From a virus, in IMG/VR virus record IMGVR_UViG_3300045988_033451: a stretch of DNA of 60,779 bases. One strand, 5' to 3'. Both the position numbers and the translations under genes were made by a program. Below the pieces are notes generated by a model. That model saw only the letters and a list, made by a program, of their open reading frames with translations, searched no databases and was not told the DNA's origin. Below are positions 49,234 through 50,365 of the stretch, one piece after another (position 1 is the stretch's first letter; the number at the start of each line of letters is the position of its first letter).

Positions 49234-49378
49234 AACTACTCCTAAATCATGTGTATATGCTTCCTATTACTTCCATTCAACTACTCCATTCGTTCCGTAA
49301 TTATTCAATCCCTTATAATCTCTTGCCATAATTGTTGCCGAAACATCAATCACGGACGCTGTTGGTTCAATATCCTTA

Positions 49379-50365
49379 TCAACCATTCCTTTTAACAATA
49401 AGGTTTCCGTCTGACCGCAAATTTGAGATTCCTGCGTCATATCTTGCCTTGATGCAGTTTGCAATTTCTCTCTGCTGTGGCTTATTGATTGTTCCGTCAA
49501 CGCAAGTCTGCTCTGCTCTGCTCTGCTCTGCTCTGCTCTGCTCTGCTCTGCTCTGCTCTGCTCTGCTCTGCTCTGCTCTGCTCTTAGGGATTGTATTCGA
49601 CAATGTACCGTTGTCAATAAGCTGTTTTATCAGCTTGTCAGCCTTTTCATTATTGATGTAATACTTTTCATCTACATTATCCTCAAGATAGTCTTTCAAC
49701 TTCTTTTTAAGAGGGATAGGCTGTGGAAAACTGTACGAATAATTTCCTAAGAACGAAAACATAAAACATCTGTTTCTGTTCTGTGCTACCCAATTCTTAG
49801 CATTCAAATCTTGCCAGTAATTCGTGTAGCCTAAACTTTCCAAAAATTCCAACCATTTCTTGAAATCATCAACGTTTTTCTTGCCATGTACCTGTGGTAC
49901 ATTTTCCATGAATAATATCTGTGGTAGTTCTCCGCTACTATCTCTGATTTCGGTTAGTATTCTCTCAACTTCCCACAATAGACCTGATCGTGTGCCGCTG
50001 CCTTTAGACATCCCGGCTTGTTTTCCGGCGACAGACAGGTCCGTACATGGAAAAGAGTAAGTAAGTAAGTAAGTAAAGTTTTCTGTGTCGCAAATATTCA
50101 AATCTTCTGCGTGAACCTTAGTTATATCCATTGTAGGAAAATTAGTACCATGTACCGCGTTATAACTTGCAATAGCGTATTTATCAAACTCTACAACCCT
50201 GTAATACTCAAACTTAGCACCTATTCTTTTTAAAGCCATTGCCTGACTTCCATAGCCGGCAAAAAGTTCAATCAATCGGATAGGCTTTGTTATTTTGATC
50301 GGTTCTCTTATGTAATCAAATATAGACATCTGATTGTCACAAGAATATTTTTCAAAATCCATCAA
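49379..50365 (-). CDS. C5 DNA methyltransferase, N-terminal piece (motifs I-VIII) containing the pentanucleotide repeat
   Basis: ELFAGYGS (motif I), SFPCTDLS (motif IV), ENV (motif VI), QNRNRCF (motif VIII), then (SRAEQ)5 and [13 protein letters not shown]. Confidence 0.8.
49507..49584. repeat. Pentanucleotide simple-sequence repeat (CTCTG)~15.6, 78 nt, inside the methyltransferase ORF
   Basis: Fourteen perfect units at 49511-49580 plus partial flanking units. Confidence 0.9.

Follow-up and report, generated by a model that had tools for sequence, protein, structure and literature searches.

A hypermutable repeat that may choose between two C-terminal tails of a split phage C5 methyltransferase

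A split C5 methyltransferase with an intragenic repeat

The viral DNA analysed here, IMG/VR record IMGVR_UViG_3300045988_033451 (60,779 nucleotides, hereafter the window), carries on its minus strand a C5 cytosine DNA methyltransferase encoded in two pieces, the first of which contains a long pentanucleotide repeat. The N-terminal subunit gene (49379..50362) was identified from its open reading frame (ORF; 49379..50365), from the match of that ORF to PF00145 (E = 5e-44, profile positions 2-257) and from matches in the PDB, where the closest solved enzymes were M.MpeI (1.5e-31) and M.HhaI (3e-17), over residues ~28-250. The likely start is the ATG at 50362 and the stop is the TGA at 49379-49381. 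Within the subunit lie motif I (FAGYGSQ), motif IV (FPC, in FPCTDLS), motif VI (ENV, in MENVPQ) and motif VIII (QNRNR, in QNRNRCF), followed by the repeat and a C-terminal segment that we call tail A. Motifs IX (RKLTPRECGRLMG) and X (GNSIVV, in FGNSIVV) are found in the C-terminal subunit gene (48481..49233, minus strand), which matches PF00145 with E = 1e-10 over profile positions 234-322 and also holds four TL-type recognition-like modules. Motifs I, IV, VI, VIII, IX and X of a C5 cytosine DNA methyltransferase are all present across the two ORFs. The C-terminal subunit gene starts with an ATG at 49231-49233 behind an AGGAG ribosome-binding site at 49239..49243. The initial annotation of this DNA had taken the motif IX-X piece, with its own ribosome-binding site and ATG, as evidence of a natural split, and the arrangement proved to be conserved; AGGAG or GGAG followed by ATG precedes the gene in nearly all relatives, and single-chain fusions occur in only a few (L001, L030, P0043 and P0073).

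The repeat occupies positions 49507..49584 in the N-terminal subunit, after catalytic motif VIII and ahead of the recognition region. It reads (AGAGC)15.6 on the coding minus strand and CTCTG on the plus strand, and Tandem Repeats Finder returned a period of 5, 15.6 copies, 100% matches and a score of 156. In the window the tract is in frame within the ORF and is translated as (SRAEQ)5. Among 200 sequences simulated from the window with a first-order Markov model, no 4- or 5-mer tandem tract exceeded 16 nt, compared with the 75-78 nt observed, and the only other 4- or 5-nt repeats of at least four units in the window are an ACAG and a GTAA tract. The pentanucleotide tract is real and far beyond chance. 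Tandem Repeats Finder, the ORFs and PF00145 together confirmed what had first been annotated as a perfect 78-nt tract lying in frame inside a C5 methyltransferase.

Tract length and reading frame among relatives

A scan of IMG/VR gave 409 relatives of the N-terminal ORF. We examined 80 of these loci and compared them with 119 gut-metagenome contigs and with genome-bin relatives that are ~60% protein-identical. A repeat was observed at the equivalent site in ~200 related loci, with tracts of 9-78 nt. In the IMG/VR loci the site lies ~785 nt into the gene and holds mostly (AGAGC)n of 3.6-15.6 units or (GACA)n of 4.8-15 units, while a minority carry 8-mers and a few have only one or two units. 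Across the relatives as a whole the units were AGAGC, GACA, GACATACA, AACAG, GAACAGA and G9; at the equivalent site the distant genome-bin relatives carry (AACAG)11, (GAACAGA)12, (GACA)19 or G9, and those with other units or G9 (L167, L169, L172, L175, L176 and L180) share 56-66% protein identity. The AGAGC and GACA units are both free of stop codons in all three frames.

Several pairs of loci were 100% identical in their flanks, over 600 nt upstream and 117 nt downstream, and differed in unit number alone. Between such loci we counted 2.8, 4.8 and 5.8 units of GACA, and for AGAGC 6.6 and 7.6, 9.6 and 15.6, and 3.2 and 9.2 units, which shows that the tract changes faster than point substitutions accumulate. 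All three reading frames are present among the assemblies and, using tblastn, we observed that the frame of the segment after the repeat, relative to the catalytic domain, tracks the unit number modulo 3. The tract has the properties of a contingency locus, being a perfect, non-triplet, intragenic repeat beyond chance, whose unit number outpaces its flanks and alters the frame. The early view of the tract as hypermutable and frame-changing was therefore borne out in ~200 loci, in the identical-flank pairs and by the occurrence of all three frames, and a count of units in related assemblies, suggested at that stage as a check, gave numbers that differ and are not restricted to triplet-compatible changes.

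No near-identical relative of the window covering the tract site was found; the closest genome, L188, breaks off inside the tract. We also sought pairs of contigs from the same sample that differ in the tract, where the sole candidate, L209 and L269, represents two different phages. Many other contigs likewise start or end within the repeat, leaving 33-62 nt of it at the contig end (L202, L204, L205, L210, L235, L255, L276, L291, L295 and L306, and also L081 and L162). These ends may reflect a k-mer limit of assembly or length heterogeneity within the sample. A separate observation concerns the GACA-type methyltransferase tracts of L015, L074 and L077 (~4770-4790), which are preceded by ACACAATCTTGACAGACAG. 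This nearly matches AACACAATCTTAACAGACAG, the flank of the tract in a PAPS-reductase-like gene described below (window 52635-52646), and the repeat may have been copied together with its left flank between the two genes.

Two tails, further tracts and competing explanations

Downstream of the tract the three frames end differently. Frame 0 encodes tail A (49379..49506, minus strand), which is 41-49 codons long in 115 of 116 metagenome loci. Frame +1 encodes a second segment, tail B (49267..49506, minus strand), which is open for at least 65 codons in 112 of the 116 loci, reaching 65-86 codons and spanning the whole of the tail A region. Tail B consists of a ~38-codon stretch that overlaps tail A (LALTEQSIS...TETLLLK), then a conserved module at ~49270-49389 and then a stop; the module at the end of this frame has the pattern A(T/V)T(L/I)(M/R)ARDYKG(F/L).N...NGVIEWK, directly followed by the stop. 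Frame +2 stops after two codons (DLR-stop) in every one of the 116 loci. We refer to these configurations as states A, B and C, respectively, and the window was assembled in state A.

The +1 frame was open in all 56 unique sequences, which have a mean pairwise identity of 81% and a minimum of 59%. In a dual-coding test, tail A was synonymously recoded with the gene's own codon usage and the +1 frame was scored for openness. After recoding, the +1 frame was still free of stops in only 2.3% of trials (range 0.3-8.2%). Codon contexts from which a +1 stop can arise (NTA followed by R, or NTG followed by A) numbered 0 of 370 in the overlap, compared with 1070 of 2935 in the non-overlapping part of the gene. 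The +1 frame is kept open by selection. Beyond the overlap, the tail B module has codon-position entropies of 7.7, 5.7 and 20.1, and judged by these values it is under purifying selection. Comparing the junctions among relatives, we found neither a conserved start codon nor a conserved Shine-Dalgarno sequence for the module. It is present as several different cassettes across lineages, and contiguous ORFs that join the catalytic domain to tail B were found in IMG/VR (10 loci), in protein clusters and in metagenome contigs. The dual-frame layout is also kept in L175, which has poly-G in place of the repeat.

These results change how the end of the N-terminal gene is to be read. The initial annotation had the ORF stopping at 49379 and a segment beginning GMVDKDIEP continuing in another frame, and both statements agree with the ORFs, the segment lying in the +1 frame within ORF 49267..49617. 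It went on to describe a fragmented gene with a frameshift at an AAAA run, which it placed at 49392-49395 and which is in fact at 49390-49393. The +1 offset is common to all relatives, the junction is unconserved and the +1 frame is open back to the repeat. An unconserved junction indicates that the repeat is the entry to the +1 segment, which is an overlapping alternative frame and not a lesion or a slippery site; a frameshift or sequencing error at the A4 run, which is itself not conserved among relatives, was rejected. The expectation that gain or loss of one or two units truncates the enzyme holds for one shifted frame but not for +1, which is kept open into a conserved module. On these comparisons the repeat would be a three-state switch between tail A, tail B and a truncated product. 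As we read the alignments, the catalytic subunit acquires one of three C-termini according to the hypermutable tract, and selection keeps two of them.

Tails A and B share the colinear pattern C/T-I/L-x-A-R-x-x-x-G...G-N-x-V-I/V-E. T(L/I)-type modules recur in both tails and, four times over, in the C-terminal subunit, and the tails resemble the repeated modules of that subunit and of single-chain relatives.

We also asked how often each state occurs. Using a gut-metagenome scan keyed on a pattern just downstream of the repeat, and blind to state, 101 contigs could be classified, 55 in state A, 24 in B and 22 in C. State A is enriched over a neutral 1:1:1 distribution in these contigs (chi-square ~20). 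The top 120 protein clusters gave ~46 A, ~55 B and ~10 C, a sample biased by score ranking and 90% clustering, and the IMG/VR loci gave 10 in state B against 4 in state C. The excess of B in the clusters and in IMG/VR is absent from the unbiased sample, and state frequencies were abandoned as proof of a functional state B. As B does not exceed C there, it is the dual-coding constraint and the conservation of the tail B module that speak for a functional tail B.

Two further tracts lie in the same module, both of which were absent from the initial annotation. A scan of the window and relatives revealed a poly-G tract in the C-terminal subunit gene (G7, 49159..49165, minus strand), which occupies codons 24-26 (VGG), is in frame and therefore ON, and is the longest G/C homopolymer of the window. 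Relatives carry G5-G9 at this site, with 20 ON (190-331 aa) and 41 OFF (25-43 aa), and the distant relatives listed above (L167 to L180) have two or three G7-G10 runs in the recognition region of the second subunit. The case for the poly-G as a switch is a comparative one. Both OFF frames stop just before a conserved in-frame ATG, that of TMQGG, and re-initiation there to give a shorter C-terminal subunit is conceivable. The second tract, (ACAG)14 at 52579..52634 on the minus strand, lies within a PAPS-reductase-like gene (51827..53054, minus strand; PF01507 on both halves, PHROG 424). The halves of this gene are out of frame in the window, corresponding to OFF, and form a single 403-aa ORF in L037. 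In the 76 relatives with both halves on the contig we observed 2-20 units and all three frames, with ~30 in frame, and on this comparison (ACAG)n is a second family-wide contingency tract. The remaining repeat, (GTAA)5 at 50056..50076 on the minus strand, encodes FTYLLTY. It had been annotated as a second short repeat just before motif IV; it does lie there, but the view of it as a variable tract was rejected, because it measures 19-21 nt throughout the relatives with no frame change across it, encodes a conserved peptide and stands outside the switch.

Taken together, these results make it probable that the locus encodes a phage C5 cytosine DNA methyltransferase that is naturally split and built of several modules, with a composition determined by hypermutable repeats, of which the three-frame tract is the main switch. 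In this mechanism slippage at (AGAGC)n would move translation among three frames. Frame 0, the state of the window, would append tail A to the catalytic domain; frame +1 would read through the ~38-codon stop-free overlap into the tail B module; and frame +2 would stop after two codons and yield a truncated product. The poly-G would separately switch the full-length C-terminal subunit, with its recognition-like modules and motifs IX-X, on and off, and (ACAG)n would do the same for the adjoining PAPS-reductase-like gene. Tails A and B may be alternative target-recognition or subunit-pairing modules, in which case the states would differ in the sites that are methylated, or in whether any are. 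Given a frame-shifting repeat in the relatives, one phage lineage probably yields progeny that modify their DNA differently. The benefit could be that the phage or prophage hedges its DNA modification against hosts with differing restriction systems, including methylation-dependent ones, which would parallel the experimentally shown contingency locus in T2 agt discussed below.

Several observations weigh against this interpretation. The recognition-domain label for the tails is challenged by the weak similarity between tail A and tail B (hhalign P = 0.014), by an AlphaFold2 model of the single-chain relative P0043 (50-sequence alignment, mean predicted local distance difference test (pLDDT) score of 60) in which pLDDT falls below 50 across the tail region, residues 251-338, and by a PDB sequence search with a state-B protein, in which no alignment to a solved structure extends past residue ~250. 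In the unbiased metagenome sample, state B does not outnumber state C. The ON to OFF ratio of the poly-G is close to a neutral 1:2 and a lone G7 is not unusual by chance in 60 kb, so this tract may be under no selection. The evidence on tract length comes from assembled sequences, and switching within one phage population is predicted from them. In addition, the window copy has a private 3-nt in-frame deletion at ~49788-49796 (aattgggta), which turns YG into W in the near-invariant element LNAKNYGVAQNR just before motif VIII. The deletion occurs in none of ~200 relatives, which have LNAKNYGVAQNR or a near variant, and the window copy may be impaired whatever its repeat state.

Three other explanations have to be considered. 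The tract could be a simple ON/OFF device in which frame 0 alone works, both shifted frames are null and the +1 segment is irrelevant or made in some other way. A unit that is not a multiple of three, the presence of all three frames, and the enrichment of state A with B and C about equal in the unbiased sample would all fit such a device. It leaves unexplained why the +1 frame is stop-free over 65-86 codons in nearly all relatives when 2.3% is expected, why the tail B module, which lacks a start of its own, is under purifying selection, and why frame +2 closes immediately at every locus, and we regard it as unlikely. It is also conceivable that tail A and the module after it are joined or co-expressed where tail A ends, through programmed +1 ribosomal frameshifting or through stop-start coupling, with the repeat acting only as an ON/OFF switch or a linker. 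The constant +1 offset between the two segments in all relatives would be expected from this, and in the window an ATG overlaps the stop (ATGGTTGA) beside the A4 run. However, the junction varies (AAAAGGAATG, AAAGGATATG and AGCAATCAA, among others), many relatives have neither an ATG nor a Shine-Dalgarno sequence there, and a programmed frameshift site was rejected, there being no conserved slippery sequence and no conservation of the A4 run. Frameshifting at this point also has no need of an open +1 frame through all 39 upstream codons, and assemblies exist in which the N-domain is directly in frame with tail B, which makes this explanation very unlikely.

The frame breaks and length differences might alternatively be functionless damage or misassembly, in a decaying pseudogene or through an assembly or sequencing artefact. 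The private YG-to-W deletion could be read in this way, eleven metagenome contigs have an end within the tract, and homopolymer lengths are prone to error. Yet the same architecture, with conserved protein on both sides of the tract, was seen again in hundreds of independent assemblies produced by several pipelines, most tracts are shorter than a read, the frame correlates exactly with unit number, and diverged lineages carry different units at the same site. A pseudogene was rejected, and we give hardly any credence to decay or artefact. The three-state switch accommodates both the open +1 frame and the conserved tail B module, and it is this reading that we carry forward.

Known systems and genome context

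Among bacteria, phase variation of methyltransferases through repeats is a textbook strategy. In Streptococcus suis, ModS is a phase-variable Type III mod methyltransferase with a GAGCA(n) tract (PMC8125046). This pentamer is a rotation of the phage AGAGC and, as in the mod genes of phasevarions, the phage repeat is intragenic, non-triplet and located in a methyltransferase gene, with tract length setting the frame. The mod enzymes are chromosomal N6-adenine Type III methyltransferases with the tract near the 5' end and a biphasic ON/OFF output, whereas the phage enzyme is a split C5 methyltransferase with no Res partner, its tract follows the catalytic motifs and one of the shifted frames encodes a conserved alternative tail. 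As a C5 enzyme with no Res or HsdR among its neighbours, it is not a phasevarion and resembles one only in its mode of working. The phasevarion-type, slipped-strand ON/OFF mechanism proposed in the initial annotation was thus right about a frame-changing tract and wrong about a two-state outcome, since three states were found.

In phages, repeat-driven phase variation has only recently been reported, and there as mononucleotide runs. A-runs form contingency loci in T2 agt and T4 rIIA, and variation of the run in agt, a DNA-modification gene, is interpreted as hedging against host defences such as restriction systems (Gomez, Barrick and Waters, bioRxiv 10.1101/2025.10.21.683753). Poly-G tracts in the receptor-binding genes of Campylobacter phages have been mentioned too (Sorensen et al. 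2021 Cell Rep, as cited in PMC12823448). The locus described here likewise consists of hypermutable tracts in phage genes and, like agt, involves DNA modification. Unlike those mononucleotide runs with null and restored alleles, it has 4- and 5-nt repeats that reach 78 nt, its 4.5-kb modification module holds three tracts, and its alternative product is dual-coded.

The gene layout has its own precedents. M.AquI is a naturally split C5 methyltransferase with motifs I-VIII on one gene and motifs IX-X on a second gene with its own start. The phage enzyme shares this division, with a start for each gene and a split that is conserved, and assembly of its two subunits is predicted by analogy. We know of no report of hypermutable tracts or alternative tails in M.AquI. 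The Bacillus phages SPR, phi3T and rho11s encode single-chain multispecific C5 enzymes in which a fixed series of recognition modules stands in tandem between motifs VIII and IX. Both tails and the C-terminal subunit have repeated T(L/I)-type modules in a similar layout, but these are distributed over two genes here, and repeats would gate access to them. Outcomes beyond a mere off-switch also have parallels. The lic loci of H. influenzae combine (CAAT)n with alternative starts, and poly-G variation in NgoAV hsdS gives a truncated subunit with altered specificity, so that in these loci, as in the phage gene, tract length picks among more than two protein outcomes or changes specificity. To our knowledge neither has a long stop-free overlapping frame leading into a second conserved C-terminal module. 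In full-text literature searches, neither a phage C5 methyltransferase switched by a repeat nor a dual-coded alternative tail was found.

If the interpretation is correct, repeat-driven switching would extend to the C5 methyltransferases of abundant uncultured human-gut phages, with several contingency tracts concentrated in one DNA-modification module, and a repeat that chooses between two dual-coded protein tails rather than only switching a gene off would be a further mechanism. A broader proposal, which we put forward tentatively and with rather less confidence, is that widespread human-gut phages, probably infecting Lachnospiraceae, carry a combinatorial and stochastically reprogrammable DNA-modification module gated by three repeats. 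One repeat would pick either recognition tail or none, the poly-G would gate the second subunit and the third would gate the PAPS-reductase-like partner, so that the three tracts together could give up to ~12 epigenetic types per genome. As the phage is temperate, the switch could impose phase-variable 5-methylcytosine patterns on lysogens too, which would make it a prophage-borne equivalent of a phasevarion. The locus offers a testable system for the way in which a phage hedges between restriction of unmethylated DNA and restriction of methylated DNA. It also carries a practical warning, as automated annotation labels such genes as frameshifted or fragmented.

The window is an essentially complete genome of a ~60-kb temperate long-tailed phage, judged by its gene content, which includes a large terminase, portal, major head protein, 1492-aa tape measure, tail fibres, integrase, RecT and an SbcC-like protein. 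There was no cultured close relative among phage GenBank records, the best being Dulem virus 39 at 53.6% amino-acid identity. The genome-bin relatives are mostly Lachnospiraceae, some of them on contigs of 85-144 kb, and several gut-metagenome matches lie on contigs of 80-265 kb, consistent with prophages. The methyltransferase is flanked by a GIY-YIG protein, the PAPS-reductase-like protein, SSB and small ORFs. The GIY-YIG-domain gene (50362-50952) is directly upstream and scored 22.2 bits in Pfam, just under the 22.6-bit cut-off. The stop codon of this gene and the start of the methyltransferase share the sequence TGATG, an overlap that suggests translational coupling.

A 27-bp coding tandem array was found at both ends of the window (1-269 and 60257-60779, minus strand). 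The two arrays are one coding repeat, (Y/D)(Y/S)AQIGSSG, of ~29 copies, and the same array at both ends indicates a circular or permuted genome that was broken inside a repeat-rich gene. This gene adjoins the tail-fibre genes and is probably a tail-fibre gene too. Lastly, an imperfect tandem array lies upstream of the modification module at 46449-46540, with a period of 12/36, ~7.6 copies and 73-76% matches.

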